A stretch of 30,833 nt of DNA from assembly GCA_016839515.1 (NCBI GenBank), contig JAEOUE010000168.1, forward strand, positions 1-30,833. Direction: 5' to 3'. The position numbers and the translations under genes were made by a program. Shown here piece after piece: positions 3,379 through 28,687 of the stretch (its first letter is position 1; every line of letters begins with the position of its first letter). The DNA comes from Candidatus Hodarchaeum mangrovi. Lineage in GTDB: Archaea > Asgardarchaeota > Heimdallarchaeia > Hodarchaeales > Hodarchaeaceae. The notes beneath the pieces were generated by a model. That model was given only the letters and a program-made list of their open reading frames with translations. It was not told the origin of the DNA and made no database searches.

Positions 3379-4059
3379 ATGGTTAAATCCTTCACTGACG
3401 ATTTATTGGTACCATTTGCTAAATACTTAGAGAATTATGGGACATGGGATATTTCTTCACAAGGTGCTAGCATCCTTATTCCTCATTCACATTTCCACTT
3501 CGATAAGATATTGTTTTTACCTAAAAGACTTTATTATTCTGCCGATAAAACGTGGAATTTCATCGCATCTGTTCCGATCATCTCTAAAAATCAATTTAAA
3601 CAGAATGATATAAAATTATATCAAAATCTTAAATGTATTGAAGCAGAAGTGAAAAAATTAGGGGTGTTAAAGAAAAAGTTTCGATTTCAGGAGCATTCGA
3701 TTAGTCTAAAACTTCAGGAAGAAATTCCTTCATTTGAAACAAGGTCGTTTCTAACTGAAATTTTAAATGAAGATAGAGATTTGATGCAACTAATGAATAA
3801 TATTTCTCCAGAGAATTTACAAATACAGTTATATTCCCCGAGGATTCAAACTTCTAGTATTAAAGAATATATAAACCAATTTAAAATCTATTATCAGAAT
3901 CCAGAAGAAATAATTTGGAATATAGCCATAGAAAAATACTTAGATTCTATAATTTCTAAAAAAAAGTACACTTTGGTTCTAGATTCTATCATCCAGGCTC
4001 TTGATCTATGTGCCATCCATGTTATTCGTGGTACAAATATTATCAAGAGTAGAATGTAG
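3379..4059 (+). CDS. Hypothetical soluble protein
   Basis: 226-aa ORF filling the gap between two minus-strand genes; AGTGA RBS-like sequence before the ATG; no recognised motif. Confidence 0.7.
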   Translation: MVKSFTDDLLVPFAKYLENYGTWDISSQGASILIPHSHFHFDKILFLPKRLYYSADKTWNFIASVPIISKNQFKQNDIKLYQNLKCIEAEVKKLGVLKKKFRFQEHSISLKLQEEIPSFETRSFLTEILNEDRDLMQLMNNISPENLQIQLYSPRIQTSSIKEYINQFKIYYQNPEEIIWNIAIEKYLDSIISKKKYTLVLDSIIQALDLCAIHVIRGTNIIKSRM

Positions 4060-4073: not shown

Positions 4074-5966
4074 TTAAAACGGTAGTGCTATCGTATTCAG
4101 TATTAATGATAAGAATGTCGCTAATGAGATTGTTATTCCTAATCCTGCTCCTAATCCAGCAAGGATTACTGCACGATCAGATTCCCAATCACTCATTCTG
4201 GTTTTAAGAACACGAGCAAATAACGCTCCGAGAAAAGTTAATATAGGATAGGGGATAGCAGTTGTGGTCCCAACAACCAATGAAATTACAGAGATTGGTA
4301 TTGCGGTTCCCCATTCGAATCCATACAAAATCAATACAATAATAAAAGTAATTCCAACTATAAGTGGATTGAATACAACCTGAGGATTGGTTACTAACGT
4401 AACGACTTTCCCTACATCTAAGTTCCAGAAGGGAACTGGATAAATCACAGAAGGTACTTCAGAGATAGATAACAGTGCTGTAACCCAAAAAATTCCAGCC
4501 CCCCACGCTATAAAGGACGCAATAAAATGAGCCTTAATTAAACTCATCCTTTTGGTTTTTGTTAAATCAGCTACTTTAAAAGTTGCAACCCAGCCAGCTC
4601 CTCCTTGAGTAATGACTAGGGGAGCAAACCATATCTCGCCTCCTAAAGGAGCATCTGCTGCTATAAATAATGATTCCTTAAAATAGGGTATTCCAGGTAA
4701 ATTTGCTGTAATTCCAAATGCATAAGCTAGTGCCAATGTTGACAAAAAAGACCAGCCAACAGTTAAGATTATGATTAATAATATCAATCGCATTGGAAGA
4801 TCAGGAATTAAAAATACGACAAGAAAACTTGAACCTAATGTTCCAAGCAAAAAAAATCCAATTAAAACGCTTAAACGAGGCATTTCACCTTCAATATCCT
4901 CCCCTTTTCCTTTGCTTAGCTTTCTTAAATCCCTGATAGTTTTACCAAAAATTCGTGGATCTTTTAAAATTGGAATTAAAGAAGCAGAGATTACTAATCC
5001 CACAGTCCAAGGTAAATAAAATTCTAATTGGGTATAATTATACGTATCCAATAAAGACATCCCGGGTGACCACCGGGGTAACAATCCATTCGCTACCAGA
5101 ATTGGATTCATAATAAGATTTACAAAGATTGATCCTAATAATATGCATACTACAACATTAAATGGAAGAATGAATCCAGTAGCAAATGCCAATATATCGG
5201 TAGCAATACCTAGAGATGCTCCTGGTAAAAATGCTTCAATTGATTCATTAAAATCAAACCATGGTATCGGAATAAAGGTTAATTTTAGAACTAATGGGAA
5301 TGCATAAATTACTACCCCGATAATACTGGCAATTATGGCACTCATTGAAAAAATTTGGAGATGCCGTTGATTTTCCCAGGTAAGTGATTTGGCTGCAGCT
5401 GCATCTACATAAGCAGTAGGAAAAGGGAGTACCTCTACTTTTGTATAAAGATAATTAAATATGAGCCCAAGAGATAAATCAGCAGCTTTAGAAAGTAAAG
5501 AAGTAATGATTAATAACCCTATTGGAATGAAAAAAACGGGGTTGAATAATGACCTTAGTGGGCCAAAATATTCAGGTGCAAACCAATCAGGGATTAATTC
5601 TGTAAGAGAGATTCCATTAATAAGAGCAGATCCAGTTATATCATGATGTCGAAGGTAATAATTAAAGACGACTGCCACAATCATCTCCATTCCAAGAGCA
5701 GTACTTGTTACATTCATCATAATAAATACTTCTTGTTTAGAAAGGGGATTATCGGCCATTTTTGCTAGAACAGCGAATAATACAATTGTAGTATTGAGAA
5801 CAGCCCCAATAAACCAATTATTAGTAACAAAATAAAGATATATAGCTGCTGGTTGCAAAATAAACGCTGAATAAATTATTGCGAGCCATATTCGCCATGT
5901 AAATCCACTTTGATATAGGCTGTCATCTGAAGAATTTGTTATGACATCTGCTTCAATATTCGTCAT
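4074..5966 (-). CDS. OPT (oligopeptide transporter)-like polytopic membrane protein
   Basis: 630 aa, hydrophobic throughout with many predicted TM helices; SGFTWR at the N-terminus, LSKQE, EVLPFP motif typical of OPT-like proteins; AGGAG RBS; 18 nt downstream of the preceding gene. Confidence 0.75.
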   Translation of the reverse strand: MTNIEADVITNSSDDSLYQSGFTWRIWLAIIYSAFILQPAAIYLYFVTNNWFIGAVLNTTIVLFAVLAKMADNPLSKQEVFIMMNVTSTALGMEMIVAVVFNYYLRHHDITGSALINGISLTELIPDWFAPEYFGPLRSLFNPVFFIPIGLLIITSLLSKAADLSLGLIFNYLYTKVEVLPFPTAYVDAAAAKSLTWENQRHLQIFSMSAIIASIIGVVIYAFPLVLKLTFIPIPWFDFNESIEAFLPGASLGIATDILAFATGFILPFNVVVCILLGSIFVNLIMNPILVANGLLPRWSPGMSLLDTYNYTQLEFYLPWTVGLVISASLIPILKDPRIFGKTIRDLRKLSKGKGEDIEGEMPRLSVLIGFFLLGTLGSSFLVVFLIPDLPMRLILLIIILTVGWSFLSTLALAYAFGITANLPGIPYFKESLFIAADAPLGGEIWFAPLVITQGGAGWVATFKVADLTKTKRMSLIKAHFIASFIAWGAGIFWVTALLSISEVPSVIYPVPFWNLDVGKVVTLVTNPQVVFNPLIVGITFIIVLILYGFEWGTAIPISVISLVVGTTTAIPYPILTFLGALFARVLKTRMSDWESDRAVILAGLGAGLGITISLATFLSLILNTIALPF

Positions 5967-5984: not shown

Positions 5985-8900
5985 CTACTTCAAATGTTTT
6001 CTGAACTGTTCCGCTTTTACCACTTTTTCTTCCTGTGGTAAGCTTCTCCATATTAATAATTGTTTACGAATAGAATCGACAAACCTCCTAACTGAGGATT
6101 CCCAGGCAGAAAGTATTCCTTCTAAACGAACCAGATTTATTTCAAAGGTATAATGATATTTGATTTCATCGAGATATGTAATTAATTCAACAGTTTGTTT
6201 CATGCCCATATCAAAAGGTGCCAGATTTACTGTTGCAGTCAGAGATTTCTTTCGTCCTCCTTCTGATTCAGAAGTATTAATTTTTTGAGCAAAAAATACT
6301 CCTCCAACGCTTTCTGATTCATAAATCAAGAAAAATTCCCGTAAGAATTCTATTATCCCTTCAGCTTCTTGTTCCGTTGCAGCTACAAATGGTAATGAGA
6401 TAGTCCATTTACCTGATTCCTCATCAGGTCTTGTTGATAATTCCCACGCTCTTTTAACCGATGGAACAGACATTTTCGCGGAAATTCGTAGAGGATATAC
6501 CGTACTTAACAAAATTCCAATAATACCAAAACCTAAAGCATTTATAACAGATCCTGACGAATAATTAATTGCTAAAGATTCAGGAAATAGTCCTATTATA
6601 GATAAAACGACTGCTGAAGTAATACCGATCAAATACCCAACTACAGCACCTATCACTGCATATACTAAAAATTCAGCCAAGAATAAACCAGCTATATGAA
6701 AGGGAGCTAGACCTAAAGATGTAAAAATAGAAATTTCTTTTTTAGATTCATAAACTGTAGATATTGAAGTGTTGACCATCAGTAAAATTGCAATGGTTAA
6801 TGGAATAGCTAATTCAACGAATCCCCGACCTAAATCTTGGGTCACACGTCTATGTATACTTACAATTCCATTATTTCCAACACGAATTTCTAAATATCTA
6901 GCATAGGTTGCAGAAATAGTTTCAGCTATTTTAACTGCATTTGTATAGTCACTAAGTACAGATATTGAATATAAAGAAGCTCCAAGGTCTTTTGCTGTAT
7001 CAGCAGAGACAATAACAATTTGATTTCCACTTATATGAACATTTGGGCTTGACGCATGTGTATTACGGGGAGTTATAGATTCACTATCAAATTCTTTTAA
7101 TTCTACAAACCGATCACCATCAATTAATCCTACTACAGTATATTGAGCTCCTGACCATAAAATGGTGTCATTTACATTAATATTTAAAATATCTGCTGCA
7201 GAATTAGGTAGAAGACATTCGGAATTATTATTTCCAGAAAGCCATCTACCTGTAACCAAAAAGTTCTCCACAGGTTGAAAATCTACTTCTAACTCCGACA
7301 AGCCAAGAAGGGCCCACGCCACCCAATATGCACTTAAATCCATTGTTGAAATATTAACATATCCAATAGTAGTCTGAGCAGGTGGATATAACCACCAGTG
7401 GGTAGTAAAATTGCCTATATTGCTATAATCAATTTTTAAATTTTCAAGAAGTTCTTGTGATAATGGTGTTTTCCAATCTTTACTTCTAATATAAACACCA
7501 GTATAAGGTGTTGGAGCTTCAAGGCCTTTTGAATAAACAGAAATTTGAGTGCTAGCAGAAGTAAACAAGGTTAAAGAAAAAGTAATTAGAATAATCCCTG
7601 AAAGTGCAATAATTGTTCTTCCCTTCCTCTTTTTCATCCGTGAAATTCCAGTACTCATTGCTATAAGAATTGTAGAAGTTCTTGAGGTATCCACAAAATG
7701 AGAACCTACAATCTTGACACGTAAACTCTTCAAAAAGTTAAATCCTTCTTGATAGATCATATAAAGCGCGGGAAAAATAAATATAATAGCAACAACACCT
7801 AAGATTATCATTAGAATATTTTTTGAAAGATGTAATCCTGGATGAATTATATAGAAAAAACCTAATGTAATTGAAAATATCGCACCTGTTGATATTATAC
7901 GTTTTACTCCTGTATCAAAGTTAAAAAGCAAAGAAGTCAACGCAAATGAAAAAGGAATTAATAATACAGCAAAAAAGATAGTTGTAGAAGTACCATCTTC
8001 AATAACATTACGAGCTTGTTTAAAAGCATCATAGGATAATGTGTGGAGCTGTTTAATATTAACTAAAGCATGTGAGTAATTATATTGGTTTATTAATTCC
8101 TCTACCTGCGAATAAAGTGTTTTCGCGTTATAGAGAGTCGTATTTACAAGAGCATCATCTATATTATATCTAGTATAAAGATCAACATATGTTTTTGTTA
8201 TTGAGAGTAAATCTTTGGAAGAGATCCAAGCTGATAATCCAAGATTTAGAGTTATTCCTTTTGCAACCTTATATCCACTACCACGTAAAAATTCATCACT
8301 TGAATTAGTGATGTAAACGCCAAGGATTTTATCAGGCAGCTCACCTACTAATATTACTGGGCTATCAGGTTCTAAAAACACTAAGCTTACAGTACCAACT
8401 CCAATATATCCATATGAAAAATACAAACTTCTAGTTTCAGGATCTAAAGCTCTATAGCGTAATGAACCTGCTGAAGGAACCTGTGTATAAGGATGGGTAA
8501 TTCCACCTAAGGTAAGAGTTCCACACTCAAAAATAATTGGATTTATTGTGATTCTACTATTTGTTAATTTTCCTGTATTTTTAAATTGCTTTCCATGTTG
8601 ACCCAAGTTATTTGCTTTAATTAATTGACCAGAATCATCAAAACAATATGCTTCTACAATGAAATCAAGAGGGTAATCAGGTTGGGAAGATGCAACTCCT
8701 CGAATTTGGTAATAACCATTATAATCAGCTTGTGTATAAAAACAAAATTCTTCAGGTACCCCTTTTCGAAGTTCCATATAAGTGACTCTAATAAGTGCGT
8801 TTGGAACATTCTCTAACCAAGCAGTTGTTTCATTATACTCTTTAACATTCCCATGGATAGAAGCAAAACCTACGTGAAATTGATGTTTCAAGCTGAAAGT

Positions 8901-10403
8901 TTTATGCTGAAGATCTAGGTAATTTCCCAAATTTGGTTCTGTTATAAGCTGTGAGAGAGCACATAAAGAATAAACTACTTGTGGTTTAAGATTTGACCAA
9001 TTAAGATTATCAACAATATCAAAAGGAGTACTAAATTTAAATCGATAGGATTCAGATGTAAATATTGATAATCCGATCACATTACTGGCAACAAATGGTT
9101 CTTGATCTCCAACAAATGTTATAGGGGCAATGTCTTCAAATTTTGCCAAATTAATATATGACTTAATATCAAATATTACATCTGTTTCAGATCGTATTTG
9201 AGACGCATATTTTTGAAGAAAACCTTCACCAATATCTTTCATTCGATTCTGTAAATTATTTCCTGAAGTAAATTGTAATTTAAAACGATAAAGATATCCA
9301 TATGGATTTATACCCAATTTTGTGCTTGTACTAGATAGATCTAAACATAAGACTAGTTTTATGCCTGAATTTTTGTTTAAAATATCATAATTTTCAAATA
9401 CAAACTCCCTAGAACCTGCTGCAGATTGATGGTGTCCAGAAAAAGCGATAAACATTATTGTTTTTTTAGGTGTAATGTTATTATCCCTGATTAAATGGAT
9501 AAGTTCAAGGAGAGTAGCTATTCCACACGCATCATCAGCACCGGGTGCAATTGAGTTCACAATAGAATTTGAATCAAAATAAGCGGAGATTATTACTTTA
9601 TCCTCATCTTCACCTGGAAGAATTCCTATTACATTCTTTGCATCTATTGTCTTCCATTCCATTCCAGAATAGATTTTTACAATATGACCCCCTTCTTTAC
9701 CAAGTGATCTAATATTTGAAGCAGTGGTCTGATTTGAGATAAAAATTCTTGGAATATATAGTGGTACATCCAAATCTTTTTCTTTAGCCTCAAAACGATC
9801 GGTATTATTAGGTGTAAGAAAAATAATACCTTTTGCACCAAGACTTACCGCATTTACCCAGTTTGATTTTGAATTGAATTCAAGAATTACAATTGAATCC
9901 TTAACTTCTAAACCGTTGAACTCTGTAAATGAACCATAACCTGCATATACTAAAGATCCAATTAATCCTCCTAGAGGAGTTTTACATGCATGTACTGAAT
10001 TTGGATTTAACATTTGAGCAGAATAATTCTGTCCTCCATATTCAATGTAAGTACCATAATCAATAGGAACAGTCAAGGGATAGGTAAAATATTCAACATT
10101 AGACAGATTATTTCGGTTAAAAAAATTAGTAATATATGTCAGGGACTGCTCATAACCTGGATAACCAGTCATTCGGCTCCCAAAACTCGAAAAATTTGCT
10201 ATATGGCTTTGTATACTAGGAAAATAAGAAGAGTTTATCTGACTTGCAAGTAACTCAAAATCTAAGTATTCATTAACTACTTTTGGAAGATCCACTGAAA
10301 ATTCATTGTTAAAATCAATTGTACTTGTAGATGGATTACTTAAAATTAAAGTCAATAGAAAAAAAAAAAGAGGAAGGAGTAAATGAACTTTTAGAATCTT
10401 CAT
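5985..10403 (-). CDS. Giant FtsX/MacB-type ABC permease with N-terminal PA + M28 peptidase-like (degenerate) ectodomain
   Basis: 1472 aa. Signal peptide; SRMTGYPG; PA-like GSLVYAGYGSFTEFNGLEVKDSIVIL; M28-like IISAYFDS...APGADDACGIATLLEL; TM cluster; KRKGRTIIAL (FtsX TM1); second extracellular domain; VYESKKEISIFTSLGLAPFHIAGLFLAE (FtsX signature region); soluble C-terminal domain. Confidence 0.85.
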   Translation of the reverse strand: MKILKVHLLLPLFFFLLTLILSNPSTSTIDFNNEFSVDLPKVVNEYLDFELLASQINSSYFPSIQSHIANFSSFGSRMTGYPGYEQSLTYITNFFNRNNLSNVEYFTYPLTVPIDYGTYIEYGGQNYSAQMLNPNSVHACKTPLGGLIGSLVYAGYGSFTEFNGLEVKDSIVILEFNSKSNWVNAVSLGAKGIIFLTPNNTDRFEAKEKDLDVPLYIPRIFISNQTTASNIRSLGKEGGHIVKIYSGMEWKTIDAKNVIGILPGEDEDKVIISAYFDSNSIVNSIAPGADDACGIATLLELIHLIRDNNITPKKTIMFIAFSGHHQSAAGSREFVFENYDILNKNSGIKLVLCLDLSSTSTKLGINPYGYLYRFKLQFTSGNNLQNRMKDIGEGFLQKYASQIRSETDVIFDIKSYINLAKFEDIAPITFVGDQEPFVASNVIGLSIFTSESYRFKFSTPFDIVDNLNWSNLKPQVVYSLCALSQLITEPNLGNYLDLQHKTFSLKHQFHVGFASIHGNVKEYNETTAWLENVPNALIRVTYMELRKGVPEEFCFYTQADYNGYYQIRGVASSQPDYPLDFIVEAYCFDDSGQLIKANNLGQHGKQFKNTGKLTNSRITINPIIFECGTLTLGGITHPYTQVPSAGSLRYRALDPETRSLYFSYGYIGVGTVSLVFLEPDSPVILVGELPDKILGVYITNSSDEFLRGSGYKVAKGITLNLGLSAWISSKDLLSITKTYVDLYTRYNIDDALVNTTLYNAKTLYSQVEELINQYNYSHALVNIKQLHTLSYDAFKQARNVIEDGTSTTIFFAVLLIPFSFALTSLLFNFDTGVKRIISTGAIFSITLGFFYIIHPGLHLSKNILMIILGVVAIIFIFPALYMIYQEGFNFLKSLRVKIVGSHFVDTSRTSTILIAMSTGISRMKKRKGRTIIALSGIILITFSLTLFTSASTQISVYSKGLEAPTPYTGVYIRSKDWKTPLSQELLENLKIDYSNIGNFTTHWWLYPPAQTTIGYVNISTMDLSAYWVAWALLGLSELEVDFQPVENFLVTGRWLSGNNNSECLLPNSAADILNINVNDTILWSGAQYTVVGLIDGDRFVELKEFDSESITPRNTHASSPNVHISGNQIVIVSADTAKDLGASLYSISVLSDYTNAVKIAETISATYARYLEIRVGNNGIVSIHRRVTQDLGRGFVELAIPLTIAILLMVNTSISTVYESKKEISIFTSLGLAPFHIAGLFLAEFLVYAVIGAVVGYLIGITSAVVLSIIGLFPESLAINYSSGSVINALGFGIIGILLSTVYPLRISAKMSVPSVKRAWELSTRPDEESGKWTISLPFVAATEQEAEGIIEFLREFFLIYESESVGGVFFAQKINTSESEGGRKKSLTATVNLAPFDMGMKQTVELITYLDEIKYHYTFEINLVRLEGILSAWESSVRRFVDSIRKQLLIWRSLPQEEKVVKAEQFRKHLK

Positions 10404-10415: not shown

Positions 10416-12563
10416 TTATTCTGTTTTTCTAACAATACCTCTAACTACTAAGAAGAGAACTGCGACTATGGATATTAACCAAATTCCAGCTACTATCCAA
10501 TAATATACATCTTCAACAAAACCAGTAAAAAACAGGAATGGTAAGATAGAAGGAATAATTGTAGCAAGTAATGTATAACCCCATAATCCAGCGGTCCCAA
10601 TTAAATAGCCTACAGCTGCAGGAAGAAGATAATTGGTGTAAGCTCGGGTTCCTCCAATACGTACAATTAAAAATTTAATTAGATAAGCAATTAAAATAGA
10701 CAACCACCAATAACCACCTCTTAAACTTAGTAGTATTGGAGCAGCAACAGGATTTAATGGCAACCAAGGTCTACTTAGACGGAGAATATTCAAACCAATT
10801 GCAAACACAGCCCCAAGTATAGCTTGACCCCAAATTTCGATTCCATAACTTCTATGATCCCAAAAACCTCCTGCTGCTAATTCAAGAGAAGATTCACTAT
10901 AATCAAACATATGACCTGCTTCACCTGACCATTCGTTACTTAGACCATAGAAATAAGCTAATACTGGCCATATTATTAAACAGAGTAAAATAATCGAAAT
11001 TACACTAACACTTTGACCTATAAACAGATCTCGAGCTCTAGTTTTTGTTGTTCTTGCGATATTATAACCTTCCAACGCTGAAATAGCAGGAGGTGCAGGT
11101 GCAGCATCACGTTGGAAAAATTGGAGCCACATGGCTGTAACATAATAACCTGGGGTAGCAGCATTGTTCTCACCAATAATTACACGTGCACTATGCATTC
11201 CATGCAGATGTAAATATCCAGGATGACCAATACCCATTCCTGCAGTTTCTGCGCGTAACCGAGCTCCTGCAAGATATCCAATAAGAAGAAATACCACTGC
11301 ATAAACTGCTCCAATTAGTGGGGAACCACTTAATACGAGGCTGCTTAGAAAAATTAATCCGCAAACCATTAAACCAATCCAAGCTGTCCGATAAGAAATT
11401 GGTTCTCCACTTTCATCGATAATACTTGGATCCCAGATAGCTTTTATTGTCCTTATAATGTATCTTCGTTGCAAGATAAATGCCCAGATGGCTACGCCAA
11501 ATAGCATTCCAAATTCACCAAATGCAAATAAAGAAATTCCCCCAACTCGACCAAATCCAGAATCTATGTCTGGAGGAGAAGCTAAGACGGTTGGAGGGTC
11601 AACTATTCCAAATTCTGTCTGAAAAACAGGTATAAGTACCCAAAACAACAAATAGAAGACAAGACCAGAAAGCAAAACATTTAATGATACCAAAAGAAAA
11701 GCAGCGATCATAACTGGTTCTGGTCTGGCTTCTAAATATGCATTTGGAAGTAAAGCACTTAATCCAAATTCCTTTCCAAAATCAATCGTTATTGCCCAAG
11801 CCTTTCCAGGAATAATACCAAATGGAAAGTCGGGAAGAAGTTCTATTTGATAGACAACTCGTAAAAATTCTAAGCTAGACCATCCGATAGCAATTAATGC
11901 ACCTAACGACATGAAAAAGTACCTTGTTCTTTTTTCTGCAGGTTTGGCAAGTGGTGCTTCTATTAACTCTTGAACTGGTTGAGCAAGAGGAAAAGCTAGA
12001 CGTTCGACATCAACCCAAGGCTTTCTAAAAATTTGAATCAAAAAAAGACACATAAATGCCCATGCAATGCATGTAATAGCCCAAAATGCTATAGGAATTA
12101 ACCATTCAGCGATATTCGGAAAAGCACCTCCAGCGTATGCACGATTTATCTCATCTAAAGAAGGAGCCCAGAACGTTGGAGCCCAACCAGTGGGAGGCGA
12201 AAGAGGCTCATCGAGGTGGGTAAACATTGCATTAAGTAGTAGACGCCCAGCAATAAATCCAGAATTAGTAATAGGAATTCCAACAATTAACATTGCCCAT
12301 ATAAAGGTTAATTCTTGGCGAGAATACTGCTTTCCTTTTATTCTGATTTTTTCTAAAAGCTGCAGACCAAAAATAAGTAAAAAGAATGGAAAAAGTATGC
12401 TCATTTCCTCAATGAATATTTGGGGAGCACCACCAAAATTTCCAGAAAAGATAGTAAGAACACCCCAAACTAAAAGAATTGAAAAACCAGTAATAAAAGA
12501 TTTTTTGGTTAAACCATTTTGAAATTTCTCTATTTCATCAAATTGCTCATTCTCTTCGCTCAT
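10416..12563 (-). CDS. Polytopic membrane protein, DUF6785/DUF6784-like (OPT-related)
   Basis: 715 aa with many TM helices; SRQEL, RKPWVDVERLAFPLAQ, ARLRAETAG and WLPLNPV...KFLIVRIGG motifs recalled from DUF6785/DUF6784 proteins; 12 nt upstream of the 1472-aa gene. Confidence 0.75.
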   Translation of the reverse strand: MSEENEQFDEIEKFQNGLTKKSFITGFSILLVWGVLTIFSGNFGGAPQIFIEEMSILFPFFLLIFGLQLLEKIRIKGKQYSRQELTFIWAMLIVGIPITNSGFIAGRLLLNAMFTHLDEPLSPPTGWAPTFWAPSLDEINRAYAGGAFPNIAEWLIPIAFWAITCIAWAFMCLFLIQIFRKPWVDVERLAFPLAQPVQELIEAPLAKPAEKRTRYFFMSLGALIAIGWSSLEFLRVVYQIELLPDFPFGIIPGKAWAITIDFGKEFGLSALLPNAYLEARPEPVMIAAFLLVSLNVLLSGLVFYLLFWVLIPVFQTEFGIVDPPTVLASPPDIDSGFGRVGGISLFAFGEFGMLFGVAIWAFILQRRYIIRTIKAIWDPSIIDESGEPISYRTAWIGLMVCGLIFLSSLVLSGSPLIGAVYAVVFLLIGYLAGARLRAETAGMGIGHPGYLHLHGMHSARVIIGENNAATPGYYVTAMWLQFFQRDAAPAPPAISALEGYNIARTTKTRARDLFIGQSVSVISIILLCLIIWPVLAYFYGLSNEWSGEAGHMFDYSESSLELAAGGFWDHRSYGIEIWGQAILGAVFAIGLNILRLSRPWLPLNPVAAPILLSLRGGYWWLSILIAYLIKFLIVRIGGTRAYTNYLLPAAVGYLIGTAGLWGYTLLATIIPSILPFLFFTGFVEDVYYWIVAGIWLISIVAVLFLVVRGIVRKTE

Positions 12564-12726: not shown

Positions 12727-14613
12727 TTAATGAAATTTAATCGTCTTAATTAGCACTTGTTTAGATTTATGTAAGGTAAATGTCGTATTAAATAAAGTTA
12801 TAGCCTGATTTATTTCAATTTTTAACATCGAAAATAAACTACTTACCGAAGAGATACTATTAAAGGGAGTAATAGACCTTAATGGGCTGATATTTAATGA
12901 ATAATTGAAGGGTTTAAAAGAAACCAAAGCTGAACCCTTAGGAGGTAAATTTACAGAGAATGAATCCCCAGGTAGAAATTCATTTATTGTAGAGTTATAT
13001 GGTATTAGACTGTTATTAATATAAAGATTAAACGTGGTTTGCATCTTTTTAGGAATAAATTCGAGATTTTTCTCCTCAAAATATGGATTCCAAATGATAA
13101 AAAGTCGGTCTTCTTGCAAGGGAGGATATTGAGTATCAAAAATATTGAGATTCACCATTAGAGCATTACGATCTGTGGAAACTCCAAGTGCTTCAAACAT
13201 TAAATACAACCAAATTGTTTCTCCTGATCCATAGATTTCTTTTCCATTAAATCCAGCTTTATAACGATATGAATTGTCCTCATGAGGATGAATATAATAT
13301 TCATCAACATCTTCATAAGGAATATATTGCAATGTTTTAGGCCCATATTCTCGTTCATTAGTATCAGGAATATTGGGTGAAAAAAAATCAAACATCTTAA
13401 TACGATTTAAATTCAAAACTTTTAATGGTTCTTCGGCAATAATGTAAGGGGAAAAGTAGAGATATTTTAGATATTCAAGCCAGATCATTATTGATTCAAT
13501 ACACTCCTTATAGGCTGGTGGTTCTATTCCTGCCCTTTCGGCCCAATTGAAAAATGGTGTGTGTAGGCCATCCCGCCAAGGTCTTGCTTGAATCAGATAG
13601 AGCTCACATTTTCCTCCATTTGTATATAAGAGTTGTTCTTGGGCATAGAAAAACTCACTTGCCATTTTTCCAAAGTCTATTGTCGTATTTAATTTATCTG
13701 AATATTTTAATAATCGTGCTGCAGCTGCAGAAGCACATCCTAACTCTTGAGGTTCATATAATAATTCAAAGGGCTTGGTCTTACGCATCGCAATTAAACA
13801 CTTCATTGCTTCTTGAAGAAAAGTTAGTTCTCCGCAAAGCTCATATGCATCAATCAAAGAATATGCTAGAAGGCCAGCTGTACAATAGTTCCAATTCTCT
13901 GAGCCAACCTGTTTTAAATCAAGATCAAAAAATTGAGGGAATAAATAATTGAAATTCGCTGCAGCTTGTAAAGCGCTGCTTAAGCTAGAAAAATATGGAT
14001 TTTTTAAGAGTGAAATATTCGAAATTTTAAATAGATGACCATATTTCCATACAGAGTTCTCCATAAAATACCAGCTATCATGTCGTGTTTCCCCGGGTCG
14101 ATTAATGGATTGATTGACTTCTGGATTAAAATATTTAGGCAATTCGTTAATAAACATGTCAACCATTGTCTGTCTAGTTGAATTTGGATGTAGTTGTAAA
14201 TATCGATAAAGTGGCCACAAAACATCAATCCCAGCCATCAATTCTGTGATGTTTCTATATCCTTCGGGCCACATCCATCCATGTGCATTCTTTACATAAG
14301 CTCTAAATCCTGTAATGTTGTCTTCATTATCCTTCCCATAAGTCCAACAATCATCATACGTTAAAAACGCATCTATGCACTTATTTGCATATTCCTGCCA
14401 AGTAGTAGCATTCTCTGCAAAGGATGTATATGTAGGTAAGGTAGAAATAGCACTCTGTCGATTCTTTATCATATCAGTCCATATTTCTTCCAAACTTTTG
14501 GGAGGAAATAGAATATTTACTAAAATAATTCCTCCTATAACTCCAGATATGATTATTATAGTGACTAACAAGGCTCTAAGATCAGTACTTTTAGACATTA
14601 TAATCATTCTCAT
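12727..14613 (-). CDS. Putative (alpha/alpha)6 glycan-active enzyme of unassigned family, paralogue 1 (N-terminal TM anchor)
   Basis: 628 aa; N-terminal hydrophobic helix; HDSWYFMEN, YEPQE, YIPYED and GKEIYGSGE shared with two other ORFs in the window. The start may be a downstream Met (MSKSTD). The ORF is solid; the function is inference. Confidence 0.7.
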   Translation of the reverse strand: MRMIIMSKSTDLRALLVTIIIISGVIGGIILVNILFPPKSLEEIWTDMIKNRQSAISTLPTYTSFAENATTWQEYANKCIDAFLTYDDCWTYGKDNEDNITGFRAYVKNAHGWMWPEGYRNITELMAGIDVLWPLYRYLQLHPNSTRQTMVDMFINELPKYFNPEVNQSINRPGETRHDSWYFMENSVWKYGHLFKISNISLLKNPYFSSLSSALQAAANFNYLFPQFFDLDLKQVGSENWNYCTAGLLAYSLIDAYELCGELTFLQEAMKCLIAMRKTKPFELLYEPQELGCASAAAARLLKYSDKLNTTIDFGKMASEFFYAQEQLLYTNGGKCELYLIQARPWRDGLHTPFFNWAERAGIEPPAYKECIESIMIWLEYLKYLYFSPYIIAEEPLKVLNLNRIKMFDFFSPNIPDTNEREYGPKTLQYIPYEDVDEYYIHPHEDNSYRYKAGFNGKEIYGSGETIWLYLMFEALGVSTDRNALMVNLNIFDTQYPPLQEDRLFIIWNPYFEEKNLEFIPKKMQTTFNLYINNSLIPYNSTINEFLPGDSFSVNLPPKGSALVSFKPFNYSLNISPLRSITPFNSISSVSSLFSMLKIEINQAITLFNTTFTLHKSKQVLIKTIKFH

Positions 14614-14827: not shown

Positions 14828-17233
14828 GTGAAATTTGTGAAAAATTTGGAGTTTATCATTTCAAACCAGAAAATTGTTTTTCAGAATAGAAAAAGAGGAG
14901 TAGATACTGATTTTTATGTAAATAATGGAATAAAATGGATTAAATCTCTTTCAGTTCCCTTAATTTCTTTTGAATGGGGTACTTATTCCGCATTAGAATT
15001 AGAAAAAGTTAAAGCATCAGATTATTCTTTTAAAGTTCTTTTATCAAGAAAATTTGAGGAAGATATTGAAATCAATGCCATAGTTGAATCTCATCCTGAT
15101 ATTAGTCCATGGATCCATTTCAAAATCGAAATAAAACCTTTAAAAATGTTAACATTTCAAAAAAAAGCACCAGAAATTTTATTAAAATTACCTAATTCCA
15201 GTTCTATAACTCAATCTATTGTAATCAATCAACCCACGAGGCATACACCACCAACAAATCAATGGAAATCAAACGATTTCCCAGCTAGTTATCATTGGGA
15301 TGCAAATAAGAAAATTGAAACATTATTTTTTGTAGATTTTTCACAGATGAAATGGATGTCCCCTGAAACATTTGAACGATTTTCTCTATACGAATGTGGT
15401 CTCCACTCTGATGGAAAATTTGGATTATTAAATAGAGTACAATTATCTACTCAGGTTGATATTCCAAGGAATGTTACGCTTTTATTTGACTTCTATATTA
15501 CACAGAACTATTTAGAGAAGCAAGTTGATAAATGGATTGCAGTAGAATCCTTAATTTCTCAATCTTTTAAACTAATCCCTGGAGCAGTTAATTTTCCCAT
15601 TTCAAAGTTGTCATGGTCGAAATTCAGCAAAGGTTGTATTAAGGACTTAATGAAAGAAAATTATTGTTGGTTTGACCCAGAAAACCCTAAATATCACGCT
15701 TATGTTTTTGATGAATCAGAAATCGAACGTAGAAAGGCTTGGGAATCTAAATTTGTTGCAGAGACAATGACAATGCTAGATATCCTTCCTCCTTGGATTT
15801 TATATCTTAAATTGCATTATGATGAAACAGAAACCAGCCATGTTAAAAATACTTGTAAAAGTATCTTACAATTTTCTGATCCTAAATCTAAATTTCTATA
15901 TAATAGCCTTAAAAAGACAACTACGAACGAATACGAAATTAATAGACCAACTAATATATCTATAGGTGATTCATGGTATTTTTTTGAGCCAATAGCACGA
16001 TTCGGGATTTTATTAAAGCTTCTTCCCTCATTTTTACAAAATACTGAATTAAAACCCTATTCGGATATTTTTAGAGTAATGTGTGAAAAATCACAGATAT
16101 TTGTCAATAATCATAAATACAGAATTTCAGCATTTTATAACCCAATTTCTTTACAACCATTTTCAGATAATTCTAAAGAAGTATTAGCTAAATTAGTTGA
16201 TTTACGAGGTAAAAAAGATATTAACTGGAAAGTTGTTGCTAAAAATTATGCTTGTTTATGTATTTTTATTTTTATTCAAGTAGAAGCTTATTATATTTTC
16301 AATGAAAAAAGATATCTGGAAGAGGCAGAAAAAGGAGCAAAAGAATTAGCTAGAATATCACCAGACGAATTATTTTGGGAACCTCTTGAAATTGCTTATG
16401 GAGTTGCAGGCTTAAGCGAACTTTATCAGATCAATCATGATCTATTCTTCTTGGATCTTGCTAAAAAATTAATATTAAATGAGTTAAGAATGTTCTATTG
16501 GTATAATGATAATTCATTTAATTGGGAGGGAAAAAGAAACAATTTAGGTTTAATAATGGCCTGCGTAGGAATTAGATATCCAGCAATGAAAGAAAATATT
16601 GAATCAATTTATCCATGGCTGTCTTTTTTGAAAATAGCAATTCAGAATAACCGATTTGACTTTATTCCTCTCGGTATTTTCAAATTTTTTAACTTAATCA
16701 GGATAAATAGCTTTTATTATTTTTCTGAGGTTTTATCAGATGATTTAATCTATCCCTCACGAATCGATACACCTTGTCCATATATTCCATTTGAAGATCT
16801 AGAAATGCTTGAAACTCCTAGTCACTGCTCTAAAACTCAACCTGAAGTACCAAAGGGAAGACGAACTGGAACATTAGGACGAGAAATATATGGAGCTGGA
16901 GAAATACTCTGGTTATATTTGATGTTCGAAGCGCTTGCTACTGTGGACAATTCAGATATCATGATTATGAACATTGATCTATTTAACTTCAAATATATTC
17001 ATGATTTTCCACCAAAAAAACCTACATTCATACTATTTAATCCATATGAAAAGGAAATTGAAACAATTATTACATTCCCCTATCTCCAGAAGGAGGAACA
17101 ATTAAAGACTACTATTAATGTTTTCTCAATAGAAAAAAACACAAGACTACCCTTATCTTCCAAATTAGAAATGTGGGGGAACAAGATAAGAATAAATTTG
17201 AAAGAGGAAGATGTTATTATTCTAAATTTTTAA
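14828..17233 (+). CDS. Putative (alpha/alpha)6 glycan-active enzyme of unassigned family, paralogue 2 (cytoplasmic, extra N-terminal beta-rich domain)
   Basis: 801 aa, no signal peptide; GDSWYFFEP, WEPLE, PAMKENIES, YIPFED, GREIYGAGE and WLYLMFEAL. Alternative start TTG at 14846 has a GTGA RBS. Confidence 0.7.
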   Translation: MKFVKNLEFIISNQKIVFQNRKRGVDTDFYVNNGIKWIKSLSVPLISFEWGTYSALELEKVKASDYSFKVLLSRKFEEDIEINAIVESHPDISPWIHFKIEIKPLKMLTFQKKAPEILLKLPNSSSITQSIVINQPTRHTPPTNQWKSNDFPASYHWDANKKIETLFFVDFSQMKWMSPETFERFSLYECGLHSDGKFGLLNRVQLSTQVDIPRNVTLLFDFYITQNYLEKQVDKWIAVESLISQSFKLIPGAVNFPISKLSWSKFSKGCIKDLMKENYCWFDPENPKYHAYVFDESEIERRKAWESKFVAETMTMLDILPPWILYLKLHYDETETSHVKNTCKSILQFSDPKSKFLYNSLKKTTTNEYEINRPTNISIGDSWYFFEPIARFGILLKLLPSFLQNTELKPYSDIFRVMCEKSQIFVNNHKYRISAFYNPISLQPFSDNSKEVLAKLVDLRGKKDINWKVVAKNYACLCIFIFIQVEAYYIFNEKRYLEEAEKGAKELARISPDELFWEPLEIAYGVAGLSELYQINHDLFFLDLAKKLILNELRMFYWYNDNSFNWEGKRNNLGLIMACVGIRYPAMKENIESIYPWLSFLKIAIQNNRFDFIPLGIFKFFNLIRINSFYYFSEVLSDDLIYPSRIDTPCPYIPFEDLEMLETPSHCSKTQPEVPKGRRTGTLGREIYGAGEILWLYLMFEALATVDNSDIMIMNIDLFNFKYIHDFPPKKPTFILFNPYEKEIETIITFPYLQKEEQLKTTINVFSIEKNTRLPLSSKLEMWGNKIRINLKEEDVIILNF

Positions 17234-17500: not shown

Positions 17501-18244
17501 TCATTGAGGAATCCTTACATCTTCTGGGCCAATAAACACATCAACTCTATTCTGGGTTCGTATAATTTCTCCATCTCTCAACCAAGAAATTCGATCAGCT
17601 AAATCAAGAAGTTTAAGGTCATGAGTACTATTTATTACGGTTACTCCCGTTTCGTGGCATAGCTCTCGTAATAATTCCACAATCTGAAAGCCTGTTTTTA
17701 GATCTAAATTTCCCGTTGGCTCATCAGCTAAAATAACGCTTGGTTTTCCGGCCAATGCTCTAGCAATGGCAACACGCTGTTGTTGTCCTCCACTGAGTTC
17801 ATCAGGAGTGTGATGGATACGATCTCCAAGACCAACTCGTTCTAAAATTTCTATAGCACGCTTTCGACGCTCTTCTCTTGGAAATCTTTGAAAAACTAAA
17901 GGTAGTGATACATTTTCTAAGGCAGATATGACAGGAATAAGGTTAAATGTTTGAAAAACAAATCCTATCTTATAGGAACGTAGAGAGGCTAATTGTTTTT
18001 TGGTTAAATCAGAGAGGTTCACTCCTTCAAAATAGATTTCCCCTTTCGTTGGAATATCTAAAGCTCCCACCATATTTAAAAATGTAGTTTTCCCCGAACC
18101 AGATGGACCCATAATACAATGAAATTCACCCTTATAGATGTCTAGATTAATGCCTTGAAGTGCATTGATCTTATTATCACCCATAATATAAGTTTTCCAT
18201 ACATCTTCTATCCGAATTGTGACTTTTTGAGACATCTTTATCAC
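17501..18244 (-). CDS. ABC transporter ATP-binding protein, MacB/LolD family
   Basis: Walker [10 protein letters not shown]-loop FVFQTFNL, signature [15 protein letters not shown], Walker [13 protein letters not shown]-loop STHD. Likely true start is ATG 18235 (MSQKV). Confidence 0.95.
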
Positions 18245-18247
18245 TTT

Positions 18248-18970
18248 TTATCCAATCGAACTAACTTGAACATCAGCTCTATCTTCAATTCTATCAACGT
18301 ATCCGTCCCTGATCCAGATAATGCGATCACTAATTGAAATCATTTTCAAATCATGGGTTGCTGTAATAATTGTAGTCCCCCTTTCATTGTTTAACTTCCT
18401 TAGTAGTTCAATTATTTCAAGTCCAGTTGCTAAATCAAGGTTTGCAGTTGGTTCATCTGCAAGTACAATGGCAGGATCATTAGCTAATGCCCGAGCAATT
18501 GCAACACGCTGTTGTTGACCACCACTTAACTGACCAGGTTTGTTCTTCATACGATCTCCAAGCCCTACTGTCATTAATAGTTCTTTTGATCGCTTTCTTC
18601 TTTCCTCTCGTGGAATCCCAGCAAAAATCATCGGTGTTTCAATATTTTCTTGCGCTGTGAATGCTAATAAAAGATTGAATGTCTGAAAAATATAGCCAAT
18701 CTTTCGATTACGTAACCATGCCAATTCGTATGCATCAAGTTCTGCTATATCGACCTGATCAATGAAAATTTGTCCTGAATCAACTATATCAAGACCCCCT
18801 ATGGCATTGAATAACGTACTCTTACCTGACCCTGATGGCCCCATAATAGAAATGTATTCTTCTCTTTTAATCTTGAATGAAATTCCTTGAAGTGCATGGA
18901 CTTCTACTTTACCAAGGTAATAAGTTTTATATACATCGGAGATTTCAACAACGTTTTCAGTTAAACTCAT
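18248..18970 (-). CDS. ABC transporter ATP-binding protein, MacB/LolD family
   Basis: [50 protein letters not shown]; GAGGAG RBS. Confidence 0.95.
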   Translation of the reverse strand: MSLTENVVEISDVYKTYYLGKVEVHALQGISFKIKREEYISIMGPSGSGKSTLFNAIGGLDIVDSGQIFIDQVDIAELDAYELAWLRNRKIGYIFQTFNLLLAFTAQENIETPMIFAGIPREERRKRSKELLMTVGLGDRMKNKPGQLSGGQQQRVAIARALANDPAIVLADEPTANLDLATGLEIIELLRKLNNERGTTIITATHDLKMISISDRIIWIRDGYVDRIEDRADVQVSSIG

Positions 18971-18984
18971 GGTTGACTCCTCTA

Positions 18985-19587
18985 TTAATTTTCATAACGT
19001 AAAGCTTCCGCTGGGGATAGACTTGCTGCACGACGAGCAGGAACATAAGTAGCTAAGGCAGAAAGTATCATTGAAACTAGGACTGAAGTTACTAATAGAA
19101 TTAAAAAGAAAAAGATATTATCTTGTATAAAGAGACTGATTTCGTTAAAAGAAAAACGATTAAGATTAATTATAACCCCAAAAAGCATTCCAATAAAACC
19201 TCCAAGACTTCCTCCTAAAATACCAAGAAGAAGTGCTTCAATAATAAATAACCGGACAATATGGTTGTCCAACCCACCTATACATTTGTAAACTCCTATC
19301 TCTTTAACTCGTTCATTTACAGCCATCAACATACTATTTGTGATTCCACCAAAGCAAACGACTAATGAAATTCCTACTAGCCAGAATTGATAAGCTTCAA
19401 TCCCTGTTTCAGCTTGCAATTCCCTTAATATAAAGTAACTAGTTAATAAAGCGACCATAAATGCTATTCCTAGTATTATACCCAGTGCTGTGATAACTGA
19501 TCGAAAAAATCTTCTTCTTATATTTGAAACAGATAAAAATAACATTTCCCCAATGGTAAAATTAGGTTCTGGAAGATCTAAACTCAA
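18985..19587 (-). CDS. Minimal FtsX-like ABC permease (4 TM, no ectodomain)
   Basis: RRRFFRSVITALGIILGIAF; ITNSMLMAVNERVKEIGVYKCIG; PARRAASLSPAEALRYE C-terminus. The TTG start overlaps the upstream TGA stop (TTGA); GGAGG RBS. Confidence 0.9.
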   Translation of the reverse strand: MSLDLPEPNFTIGEMLFLSVSNIRRRFFRSVITALGIILGIAFMVALLTSYFILRELQAETGIEAYQFWLVGISLVVCFGGITNSMLMAVNERVKEIGVYKCIGGLDNHIVRLFIIEALLLGILGGSLGGFIGMLFGVIINLNRFSFNEISLFIQDNIFFFLILLVTSVLVSMILSALATYVPARRAASLSPAEALRYEN

Positions 19588-19955
19588 TATTCGCCCTCCA
19601 TTTTTTTACTCAATAGACCTTTCTTTATTTTTTTCCATGTTACATTTTTTTCAGTGATGTCAACCAAATGTTGTCTTAGGATTTTTACTGTTTCACCTTC
19701 ATTTATTCGCGTGCTATTCCAAGTAACGTAAGGAGCGTAAAAACGTCCTCGTTCAAATTTGATTTGATCATTTTCAAAACTAAACTTTAAAAACCCTAAT
19801 TCTCTTAGATAGCAGTATTCATTTGGACAAAGAATATCAATCTCCCCCATATCTTTTTTGAGATAGAGCAAAAGGTAATCTGTATAATCTTTGATTATTT
19901 GTCCACATGGACACTGTATTTGGTTTGTTTTATCCTCTAAGGCCAAACTATACAC
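19584..19955 (-). CDS. Small hypothetical protein with CxC...CxxxxC (putative Zn-binding)
   Basis: 123 aa; IQCPCGQ and ILCPNEYC; first gene of the ABC operon with a 4-nt overlap into the permease. Probable start is TTG 19946 behind an AGGTG RBS. Confidence 0.75.
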   Translation of the reverse strand: MYSLALEDKTNQIQCPCGQIIKDYTDYLLLYLKKDMGEIDILCPNEYCYLRELGFLKFSFENDQIKFERGRFYAPYVTWNSTRINEGETVKILRQHLVDITEKNVTWKKIKKGLLSKKMEGEY

Positions 19956-22126: not shown

Positions 22127-23497
22127 TTAAAATTTAAATTGAGGTAATTCAGCTTTAAAAGCTTCTATATAAGCATTTGATAAGATTTCGGCTAATTCAA
22201 GATCACGAACCATTGGATCTAAAGCAAATGCTTGTGTTATAAGATCAATATCTCCTTTTATAGATCCCTGCGTTATTAATTTCGCAATAGATATTTCTTG
22301 ATTACAAATTGCTGCAATTGATTCTGGTAGAGAACCAATTTTTACTCCAGAAGCACCATATCTGTTTAAAAGACAAGGAACTTCCACTATTGCATCAGAA
22401 GGTAGATTTGTTATACATCCATTATTTTCAATATTTAAAGCAGGTTCATAGACATTTGTATTTGTTTCTATTGAATCTATGATTGTTGCAATTCTTTCAG
22501 CGACATCAGAATGTAAGTGACTAAGTGGAAGTTTATAATCGATCATATCCTGAATTTTTTTCATGTTTTTTATTTTATTTTCTTTATTTTCTTGAAAATT
22601 GAAAGGATAAAGATTAAATTTATCCCAATTCTCTTTTCTACTTGTATACGGTAAATACTCTGATATATGAGTTTCACCACCGACAGGTAGTTTCTTAAAG
22701 GTTTTTAGCATTCGTATTGTCAATGCTTCAAATTTTTTAGGTACTTGATCTAGATTCGCCCAGATTAGAGGGTAAATATCCTCATTTGTACCTTTTCTTC
22801 TGATATCGAGCATCCATGAGAAATGATTCAATCCAGCTGCTAATACTTCATATTCATTGAGTGAAGCATTTCGAATTTCCTGATATTCTGAAAGTTTATT
22901 ATTTCTTATCCTTTTTTGTAGGTCAGGAAGCATAATCCGGCCCAATATATAATGACCATGCCAAAATTGATGACAAAAACTAATACATTTCAGATTCGTG
23001 AGTTCATTTATAGCATAATGGATTCTAGGAAGTGGGTTGGTAAAATTTATTATCCAACTATCTGAAGCTAAATCTTGAATGTCATTAAAAACAGGTATTA
23101 GAACAGCAATGTTTCTAGCTGTGTGACCAAATGATCCAGGTCCTCCATTCTCAGCATAATGATAAATATCGAATTTTTTTCCTAGTTCGTAATCCTGACT
23201 CCAAGTATCGTCCCGATTAACCCCAATGATCAAAATAATATAATCCGCATCATGTAAAACCTCGCATCTATCAGTTGTCGACACGAGTTCCATTTTTGAC
23301 CCAAACTCATTTTTTATACGCTTAGCAAGCGAATAAACCATTTTAAGCTTATTTTCATCGATATCTACCATACAAAGGGTTCCATTGTCAAAATTCTTAT
23401 TTTTTAAGATGTCACCTAAAGTAACAAGATTAAACCCTGCGCTCCCTGCTCCAAGTGTAACAATTTTTGGATCATCTGACATAATTAAACCACTCAA
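22127..23497 (-). CDS. Glycoside hydrolase family 4 (NAD+/Mn2+-dependent), alpha-galactosidase-like
   Basis: KIVTLGAGS (NAD-binding), AENGGPGS, INFTNP, FCH, GLNHF, HISEY, NxGxIxNLPxDAIVEVP, AFALDPMV. Likely start is ATG 23482 (MSDDPK). Confidence 0.9.
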   Translation of the reverse strand: MSGLIMSDDPKIVTLGAGSAGFNLVTLGDILKNKNFDNGTLCMVDIDENKLKMVYSLAKRIKNEFGSKMELVSTTDRCEVLHDADYIILIIGVNRDDTWSQDYELGKKFDIYHYAENGGPGSFGHTARNIAVLIPVFNDIQDLASDSWIINFTNPLPRIHYAINELTNLKCISFCHQFWHGHYILGRIMLPDLQKRIRNNKLSEYQEIRNASLNEYEVLAAGLNHFSWMLDIRRKGTNEDIYPLIWANLDQVPKKFEALTIRMLKTFKKLPVGGETHISEYLPYTSRKENWDKFNLYPFNFQENKENKIKNMKKIQDMIDYKLPLSHLHSDVAERIATIIDSIETNTNVYEPALNIENNGCITNLPSDAIVEVPCLLNRYGASGVKIGSLPESIAAICNQEISIAKLITQGSIKGDIDLITQAFALDPMVRDLELAEILSNAYIEAFKAELPQFKF

Positions 23498-23521
23498 TAA
23501 TTCTAAGATGTTATTTTAAGC

Positions 23522-24568: not shown

Positions 24569-24644
24569 CTAGAAAGATTACCTACCTTAAAGGAATTTTT
24601 AAAGGATTAAATTTAAATTCTTCTAAGGTATCTGGTGGACTTAT

Positions 24645-25577: not shown

Positions 25578-25635
25578 TTTCTATTTTTTAGTAAATTAAA
25601 CTCGGAATCAAGAAAGGAGTTTGAATTATCTAGCT

Positions 25636-26085: not shown

Positions 26086-26216
26086 TTGCTCTAGCTTCCT
26101 TAAAAAGAGTGATTATGATAGACCTATCAATTCTTCAGAGAATACATAAGATTTAATTCTTAATAATTTGTAAAATCAGGTAATTTAAAAACTCATTCTG
26201 ATTTTAATCTCCACCC

Positions 26217-28676: not shown

Positions 28677-28687
28677 AGCCATGGGGA

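Follow-up and report, generated by a model that had tools for sequence, protein, structure and literature searches.

We analysed a stretch of 30,833 nucleotides from Candidatus Hodarchaeum mangrovi, an Asgard archaeon of the Hodarchaeales (contig JAEOUE010000168.1, assembly GCA_016839515.1; hereafter the window), and in particular its gene for a protein of 1472 aa, P0001, which carries an extracellular domain of the M28 peptidase fold (the head) in front of a membrane permease of the MacB/FtsX type. The M28 fold itself is present in this head, while the canonical two-zinc residue set is lacking, and the noncanonical site is a trait of the whole family and not the product of decay. The gene stands between two others that code for membrane proteins resembling the oligopeptide transporter (OPT) family. 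This three-gene context, previously undescribed in the literature that we searched (open-access papers and preprints), is our main new result. Judging from its residues, the head is probably a binding module and not a di-zinc peptidase. The reading that we prefer, whose chances we put at about even, is that of a noncanonical ligand-binding head, possibly for the N-terminus of an oligopeptide, on an ATP-binding cassette (ABC) permease of type VII that would work together with the OPT-like permeases.

The active site of the M28 head

The Pfam family Peptidase_M28 (PF04389) matches residues 257-473 of P0001 at 56.5 bits (cut-off 21.3; E 3.9e-15), and an AlphaFold2 (AF2) model of residues 1-800, computed on an alignment of 51 rows, reached a predicted local distance difference test (pLDDT) value of 91.6 and a predicted template modelling score (pTM) of 0.88. 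When the head model was compared with the Protein Data Bank (PDB) by Foldseek, the best matches were 2ek8 (2.2e-23), PaAP 8acg (7e-23), BSAP 6hc6 (1.2e-21) and 3iib (3.3e-21), followed by the transferrin receptor (TfR; 1.1e-20 and weaker) and then by GCPII and GCPIII. The M28 fold that an earlier sequence-only reading of this DNA had assigned to the region is thus borne out by Pfam and by the structural match to aminopeptidases that carry a protease-associated (PA) domain inserted in the M28 fold (PA-M28). The Pfam PA family (PF02225) is precomputed for some relatives of P0001.

In Aeromonas aminopeptidase (AAP), we take Zn1 to be held by D117, E152 and H256, Zn2 by H97, D117 and D179, and the general base to be E151. 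The six corresponding positions, which read H, D, E, E, D and H in AAP, are occupied in P0001 by Y275, D290, H324, H325, D355 and S458, so that by phmmer and profile alignments the protein keeps two of the five metal ligands and is without the Glu base. The phmmer search against PDB sequences aligned residues 256-359 to chains of Aeromonas proteolytica AAP, and gives Y275 as the equivalent of H97, D277 of D99, H324/H325 of E151/E152 and D355 of D179. D290 is matched to D117 by profile placement. A profile of 51 family members, aligned to the PA-M28 aminopeptidases 2ek8 and 6hc6, sets 'SGhhq' against 'gaEE', 'GA.de' against 'GAnDD' and 'ylgtPlD' against 'wyHTPnD', the last of which shows S458 replacing the final ligand His. 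As the two methods place the gap in the Asp loop differently, the counterpart of the bridging Asp may be D290 or D291, the profile giving D290.

The sequence-only reading had listed five motifs as altered or kept, and all five are found where it placed them, in an intact open reading frame (ORF); its claim that the canonical H/D/E/D/H ligands and the Glu base are absent agrees with the alignments. Two details have to be adjusted. The acidic pair of the GADD motif that it described as kept is indeed there, but the loop is one residue short of G-A-x-D-D; and in the SGHHQ segment that it read in place of the Glu-Glu pair, it is H324 and H325 that replace the pair, while Q326 is merely the next residue. 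An alignment artefact was rejected as the source of these replacements, since two stand-alone M28 proteins included as a positive control in the same alignment run show the full set (H..D, D, EE, D, H) in the same columns. Recent pseudogenisation was likewise rejected, the ORF being intact and the family conserved. Passages of a study of M28 enzymes describe two zinc ions coordinated by His, Asp and Glu, active-site residues that the whole family conserves, and mutants with Glu changed to Ala that are non-functional (PMC3426542).

To see the family as a whole, we combined two protein searches. A word-indexed search with residues 1-800 gave 74 proteins, those with a named source coming mostly from metagenome-assembled genomes (MAGs) of Hodarchaeales, Heimdallarchaeota or 'Promethearchaeota'; distant relatives belong to Ignisphaera, Deltaproteobacteria, Planctomycetota and Verrucomicrobiae. 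When residues 1-520 were searched exhaustively by phmmer, 2601 cluster representatives came up at E<=1e-3, of which 526 reach E<=1e-30, and the best 150 matches are nearly all 1400-1600 aa long, that is, of the fused form. A close free-standing head was not found among the 15 shorter proteins, of which 13 are fragments of the family (several labelled partial, most on short contigs) and two are weakly matching canonical M28 proteins. The literature searched holds no description of the P0001 family.

Residue statistics were drawn from an alignment of 219 relatives recovered by the protein searches, 210 of which have residues at all six catalytic columns. None of these 210 carries the canonical six, and none has a complete Zn1 triad; a Zn2-type triad H-[D/E]-D is present in 67 and its variant Y-[D/E]-D in 65. 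Position 275 is divided between Tyr (100 of 219) and His (99), and position 277 is Asp in 216. Position 290 holds Asp (102), Glu (54) or Gln (16), among others, so that it is acidic in only 156 of the 219. Position 324 is His in 181 and Tyr in 18, with Glu in a single one of the 210 scorable rows, whereas its neighbour 325 is divided mainly among Trp (63), Asn (60), His (32), Tyr (25) and Phe (17), with Glu or Asp in three. Gln occupies position 326 in 163/219 and Asp position 355 in 187/219, and position 458 varies among N (64), G (55) and D (15), with His in four. In a weighted conservation ranking of the 466 head positions, D277 comes 2nd, G323 19th, P460 23rd, H324 50th, D355 63rd and Q326 87th, while 275 (109th), 290 (189th), 325 (254th) and 458 (315th) rank lower; the PA insert contributes W182, K209, P218 and R219 to the best-conserved residues of the head. 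On a FastTree phylogeny of 214 rows, built without the trait columns and without the five remaining rows of the 219, which were gappy, parsimony requires at least 39 interchanges between His and Tyr at position 275.

A position 275 that flips freely, together with two former ligand positions that drift, speaks against a conserved two-metal site, and the conservation of D277, H324, Q326 and D355 suggests that the putative pocket is still in use. These retained residues would point either to a binding function that was kept or to a non-canonical catalytic one. The best explanation of the pattern is that the remodelling of the two-zinc site dates from the family's origin and that the altered form has been retained ever after. 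The sequence-only reading holds in part here. It was right that the canonical catalytic set is gone, and to consider a pseudoenzyme or receptor was reasonable, but the site is not simply dead in view of its four conserved residues. Its alternative of a remodelled, His-based metal site has H324 in its favour, whereas H325 is unconserved and 458 is free to vary, so that a His-based site for two metals is no trait of the family. Among the residues that it singled out, G323, H324 and Q326 do prove conserved, and Y275 does not. Its warning about annotation is well founded too: several NCBI-sourced relatives are named 'M28 family peptidase', a name that overstates what the sequence supports.

The permease half and the conserved operon

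The C-terminal half of P0001 is a MacB/FtsX-type (type VII ABC) permease with a periplasmic core domain (PCD). Pfam FtsX (PF02687) matches residues 1200-1312 at 39.1 bits (cut-off 25.5), and MacB_PCD matches residues 930-1116 below its cut-off (17.5 bits vs 27). With the AF2 model of residues 787-1472 (pLDDT 85.8), Foldseek retrieved LolCDE (9xro_E, 9.2e-12), MacB (5gko, 5lil), HrtBA, YbbAP and BceAB, as well as isolated PCD structures of MacB (3ftj, TMt 0.61; 9qgy_M, TMt 0.60). The family profile aligns an N-terminal amphipathic helix and the loop between transmembrane (TM) helices 2 and 3, 'ER..EI......G', to MacB, and in this loop E1223, I1224, S1229, G1231, L1232 and P1234 are invariant among 18 close relatives. 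It is in the TM2-TM3 loop that passages of a MacB review locate the major coupling helix; the same passages describe mechanotransmission, by which cytoplasmic ATP hydrolysis does extracytoplasmic work, and type VII systems that often act via protein partners, and they do not mention archaea (PMC5985334). Such partnership has a precedent in YbbAP, a type VII ABC transporter whose substrates are presented to its partner hydrolase TesA (PMC12646458).

By the MacB topology (N-in, C-in) and the TM scan, head and PCD alike lie outside the cell, in agreement with the proposal of the sequence-only reading that the domain is extracytoplasmic on a permease of this type. The ectodomain carries 12 N-x-S/T sequons. 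Two further domains deserve mention. The beta-rich domain at residues 511-723 is confidently modelled between the M28 head and the stalk, and its family consensus may resemble carboxypeptidase-regulatory or transthyretin-like sandwiches. The C-terminal cytoplasmic domain (1316-1472), with conserved W1320, W1333, P1338, R1446, Q1448 and W1452, occupies the place of the minor coupling helix of MacB; it has no Pfam match, and the ESM atlas gave no usable match.

A scan of GTDB species genomes gave 53 loci related to that of P0001, 19 of them in Heimdall, Hodarchaeales or 'Hermod' MAGs, the closest (L001) at 71% identity. Bathyarchaeia, Thermoproteota and Korarchaeota-like MAGs account for another 32 of the 53, with identities of 26-33%, and two are partial bacterial loci. 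The scan patterns include SGH[NH]Q and PGAD[ED], so the loci are biased to carriers of these motifs and relatives without SGH[NH]Q are invisible to it. Neighbours were counted by BLASTP of all locus ORFs against the window ORFs. In the Asgard loci that carry the long form of the protein, as in P0001, a DUF6785/6784 gene adjoins upstream and an OPT-like gene adjoins downstream in 11 of 11. Among TACK loci with the long form and enough flank, the OPT-like gene adjoins downstream in 19 of 22 and is present somewhere in all 22, and a DUF6785-like gene is found at some place in 19 of 25 loci, in 11 of which it is the immediate neighbour and runs on the same strand. The OPT-like, P0001 and DUF6785 genes overlap by a few bases in many loci. 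The three-gene operon is conserved in Heimdall/Hodarchaeales and mostly so in Bathyarchaeia and Thermoproteota.

The two neighbours of P0001 are paralogous: their alignments of 25 and 23 rows match each other over about 600 columns in hhalign (99.9% probability, E 3.2e-36), the direct BLASTP match between them being marginal (E 0.044). Pfam OPT (PF03169) is matched at E<=0.01 by 18 of 25 homologues of the downstream gene, the best at 7.1e-18. In a phmmer search of the PDB, the OPT-like protein retrieved nothing and the DUF6785 protein only chance-level potassium-channel matches (E>=0.05); DUF6785 also gave no match in the literature searched. To our knowledge, none of the characterised OPTs works together with an M28-like receptor or an ABC permease. 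In 8 of the 19 Asgard loci there is a second, shorter paralog (~1250 aa), with the same remodelled head and without the PCD. In L013/L014, long and short paralogs share a contig and are within ~20 kb of each other.

P0001 has no ATPase fused to it or next to it. The candidate energiser block of the window (Table 1), a four-gene operon, contains two ABC ATPases that NCBIfam matches best to LolD and MacB and in which Walker A, the signature and the Walker B-Glu are intact, next to a minimal FtsX permease with almost no ectodomain, and the block recurs in all 11 Asgard long-paralog loci. The proximity of two distinct ATPases and two distinct FtsX permeases suggests a heteromeric machine.

As for the rest of the window, six ORFs of 226-801 aa, at 985-3234 (-), 3379-4059 (+), 12727-14613 (-), 14828-17233 (+), 20174-22042 (-) and 24645-25577 (+), have no Pfam or NCBIfam match; most keep their order in Heimdall/Hodarchaeales loci, the 628-aa ORF being matched only in L001. 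The block is flanked, at 22127-30832 and 2-655, by sugar-related genes for a GH4 glycosidase, a Zn-dependent alcohol dehydrogenase, a GH2 glycosidase and a DUF4861 fragment; a small PqqD-like protein and a cation ATPase of the P type are encoded there too. Scanned for tRNA genes and Rfam families, the window gave no match.

Table 1. Features of P0001, its active-site motifs and its genomic surroundings (window positions unless a locus is given)
Feature	Position	Strand	Description or basis
P0001 gene	5985..10403	-	Intact ORF, 1472 aa; signal peptide to C-terminal cytoplasmic domain
N-terminal hydrophobic helix, signal peptide or anchor (residues 1-26)	10326..10403	-	Hydropathy scan; model helix 5-21
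PA-inserted M28-fold ectodomain, the head (45-510)	8874..10271	-	Pfam M28, AF2, Foldseek
PA insert (~125-250)	9654..10031	-	Boundaries estimated; model secondary structure, conservation ranks
SAYFDS	9570..9587	-	Y275 in place of Zn2 ligand His (AAP H97); D277 = D99, near-invariant
GADDA	9528..9542	-	D290/D291, bridging-Asp loop, one residue shorter than canonical GAxDD
SGHHQ	9426..9440	-	H324 for general-base Glu E151, H325 for Zn1 ligand Glu E152; Q326 conserved
LCLDL	9336..9350	-	D355 kept = AAP D179, Zn2 ligand
FSTPFD	9018..9035	-	S458 in place of Zn1 ligand His of Y-H-T-P-x-D
Beta-rich extracytoplasmic domain(s) (511-723)	8235..8873	-	AF2 model; without Pfam family
Helical stalk (724-800) and three extra TM helices (804-888)	7734..8234	-	AF2 models, hydropathy
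FtsX/MacB-type permease TM1 (928-951)	7551..7622	-	Model, profile alignment, hydropathy; preceded by cytoplasmic loop
MacB-like PCD (952-1190)	6834..7550	-	Sub-cut-off Pfam, Foldseek, hydropathy
FtsX TM2-TM4 (1191-1312), TM2-TM3 loop = putative counterpart of major coupling helix (E1223...P1234)	6468..6833	-	Pfam, invariant columns, MacB 5lil alignment
Conserved C-terminal cytoplasmic alpha/beta domain (1316-1472)	5988..6458	-	Conservation, model
Upstream gene, 715 aa, DUF6785+DUF6784	10416..12563	-	Distantly paralogous to the OPT-like gene; 12 bp from P0001
Downstream gene, 630 aa, OPT-like polytopic membrane protein	4074..5966	-	18-bp gap to P0001
Candidate energiser block: 123-aa Cys-rich protein (no TM helix), minimal 200-aa FtsX, two ABC ATPases	17501..19955	-	~7 kb upstream
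~1250-aa paralog loci: L002, L005, L006, L010-L013, L018	e.g. L013:9818-13576

Binding, catalysis or docking

In the reading that we prefer, the head would bind a ligand without cleaving it, in a putative pocket made of D277, D290/D291, H324, Q326 and D355. The retained residues are those of what we take to be the amine-binding side of the aminopeptidase site, and together with the OPT-like partners they make an oligopeptide with a free N-terminus the probable ligand, which would be gripped by that end in the former aminopeptidase pocket. ATPases of the LolD/MacB type, presumably those encoded nearby, would hydrolyse ATP, and the force would be passed on through the TM2-TM3 coupling helix and the stalk and PCD, whose movement would release the ligand, hand it to the OPT-like permeases, or gate them.

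A number of observations weigh against this scenario. The OPT-like gene of the window itself scores 22.9 bits with Pfam OPT, below the cut-off of 25.8, though it spans positions 2-620 of the 623 of the profile, and the literature searched holds no characterised OPT-like member of the clade of the neighbours. The ~1250-aa paralogs do without such neighbours (DUF6785-like genes in 0/5 loci, OPT-like genes in 0/6 with enough flank), so that the head also works in another context. ABC ATPases are found in only 2 of 27 TACK long-paralog loci, which leaves the energiser unproven. Finally, a conserved His at the general-base position, along with D277 and D355, fits a non-canonical hydrolase as well; a complete Zn2-type H-[D/E]-D is present in 67 of 210 relatives, for which one metal is possible; and the best-scoring AAP chain, 2anp, carries His at position 151. 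The His-151 variant of AAP is reported to keep some activity.

These last points make up most of the case for a head that is still an enzyme, a non-canonical hydrolase either mononuclear at Zn2 or metal-free, with H324 as base, that would trim peptides or another surface polymer beside the OPT-like permeases and be gated by the ABC machinery in the manner of YbbAP/TesA. This, the main rival, we regard as unlikely. It would account for the conservation of H324 (His in 181/219), D277, D355 and Q326, and has a precedent in YbbAP-TesA (PMC12646458). Yet the place of the Zn2 His has seen 39 or more exchanges with Tyr, the bridging residue at 290 is acidic in just 156 of 219, many relatives have W, F or Y at 325, in the place of a metal ligand, and a Zn1 triad occurs in 0/210, in a fold whose active-site residues are otherwise family-conserved and whose Glu-to-Ala mutants are non-functional, according to passages of PMC3426542. 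A third view, to which we give a smaller chance, dispenses with peptides altogether: the head would be a structural or docking module that either binds another extracellular protein and regulates it mechanically, in the way that FtsEX acts on EnvC or PcsB, or contacts the S-layer, glycans or neighbouring cells, and the OPT-like neighbours would transport something else. Type VII ABC systems often working through protein partners (passages of PMC5985334), the prominence of W182, R219, P218 and K209 of the PA domain as the most conserved part of the head, the short paralogs that work without OPT-like neighbours and the 12 sequons of the ectodomain would all suit it, but a pure scaffold has no need for D277, H324 and D355 in the top 15% of conservation, nor does it explain the tight operon linkage to OPT-like genes across phyla.

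Two simpler identities fare far worse. That the head could be an ordinary, active di-zinc M28 aminopeptidase, as its above-cut-off Pfam match and the names of several NCBI-sourced relatives would have it, has next to no probability, given two of five ligands, no Glu base, no canonical relative in 210, and control proteins that show the full set in the same alignment. Very improbable as well is the idea that Asgard archaea have kept in this head a prokaryotic forerunner, or specific relative, of the nicastrin/nicalin receptors of eukaryotes. The Hodarchaeales origin invites it, as do weak matches to nicalin (E 0.006 by single-sequence search, 4.4e-12 by profile) and to Pfam Nicastrin (PF05450; 18.5 bits, below the cut-off of 25, and only over residues 270-337). 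However, among the 58 profile matches in the PDB the bacterial PA-M28 aminopeptidases are far better (2ek8 4.4e-31, 6hc6 2.6e-26; TfR 1.1e-12, GCPII 1e-9) and no nicastrin chain occurs; the family is found equally in Bathyarchaeia and Thermoproteota, with some bacterial members; and its FtsX-fused architecture is different. A specific kinship with nicastrin and TfR, to which the sequence-only reading likened the head, does not survive these comparisons: with aminopeptidases matching best and TfR and nicalin far behind, the comparison holds as an analogy. The loss in the head is probably independent of that in TfR, nicalin and nicastrin, and the likeness is one of convergent loss.

If the preferred reading, ligand binding coupled to ATP hydrolysis, is carried to its fullest form, the pseudo-M28/MacB permease and its two OPT-like partners, one on each side, would be an archaeal nutrient-capture machine that has gone unrecognised, in which a dead aminopeptidase head grips extracellular oligopeptides by their free N-termini and a type VII engine, driven by cytoplasmic ATP, releases them or feeds them into the pair of secondary OPT-type permeases. 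We consider this unlikely. Were it true, the machine would correspond in function to binding-protein-dependent import while being made of quite different components, and many of the 'extracellular M28 peptidases' counted in metabolic reconstructions of Asgard archaea and Bathyarchaeia would be receptors. The catalytic set being found in 0/210 relatives, counts of extracellular peptidases in uncultured archaea may in any case be inflated by this family. With its 526 clusters at E<=1e-30 it is a large one, mostly archaeal, and of a function undescribed in the literature searched. It may join pseudo-peptidase receptors to ATP-driven work outside the membrane, within a conserved OPT-like operon, and its three-gene context offers a testable hypothesis for peptide handling at the cell surface of Asgard and TACK archaea. 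It would also be an independent prokaryotic case of the transition from M28 enzyme to receptor, as in TfR, nicalin and nicastrin.

Comparison with known systems

The nearest relatives of the head are the PA-M28 aminopeptidases (Aneurinibacillus AM-1 2ek8, B. subtilis BSAP/YwaD 6hc6, P. aeruginosa PaAP 8acg), which have the same architecture of a PA domain inserted in M28 and are likewise secreted or extracytoplasmic. They differ in having a full H-D-EE-D-H site, as seen in the 2ek8 and 6hc6 alignments, and in being soluble, without a fused permease. The best AAP match by both phmmer and profile is 2anp, from Aeromonas/Vibrio proteolytica, in which a His stands where the wild type has E151, mimicking the conserved H324 of the family; unlike the head, AAP is without a PA domain and keeps both Zn sites.

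TfR, nicalin and nicastrin have M28-like folds without catalytic residues, TfR with a PA domain too, and serve as membrane-anchored receptors or complex subunits. In contrast to P0001, these are single-pass eukaryotic proteins, and the former site of the P0001 head is still partly conserved. The M28B members TfR and GCPII share with it the PA and M28 fold, while their TFR_dimer domain has no Pfam match in P0001.

On the permease side, P0001 has in common with type VII ABC systems (MacB, LolCDE, FtsEX-EnvC, YbbAP-TesA) the four-TM FtsX fold, the PCD and a putative coupling helix. It departs from them by a ~780-aa head and three extra TM helices at the N-terminus, by a cytoplasmic domain at the C-terminus, by having no fused nucleotide-binding domain, by belonging to an archaeal family, and by its two OPT-like membrane-protein partners, of which the downstream one matches the OPT profile over its whole length, at a score below the cut-off, and the upstream DUF6785/6784 protein is its paralog.

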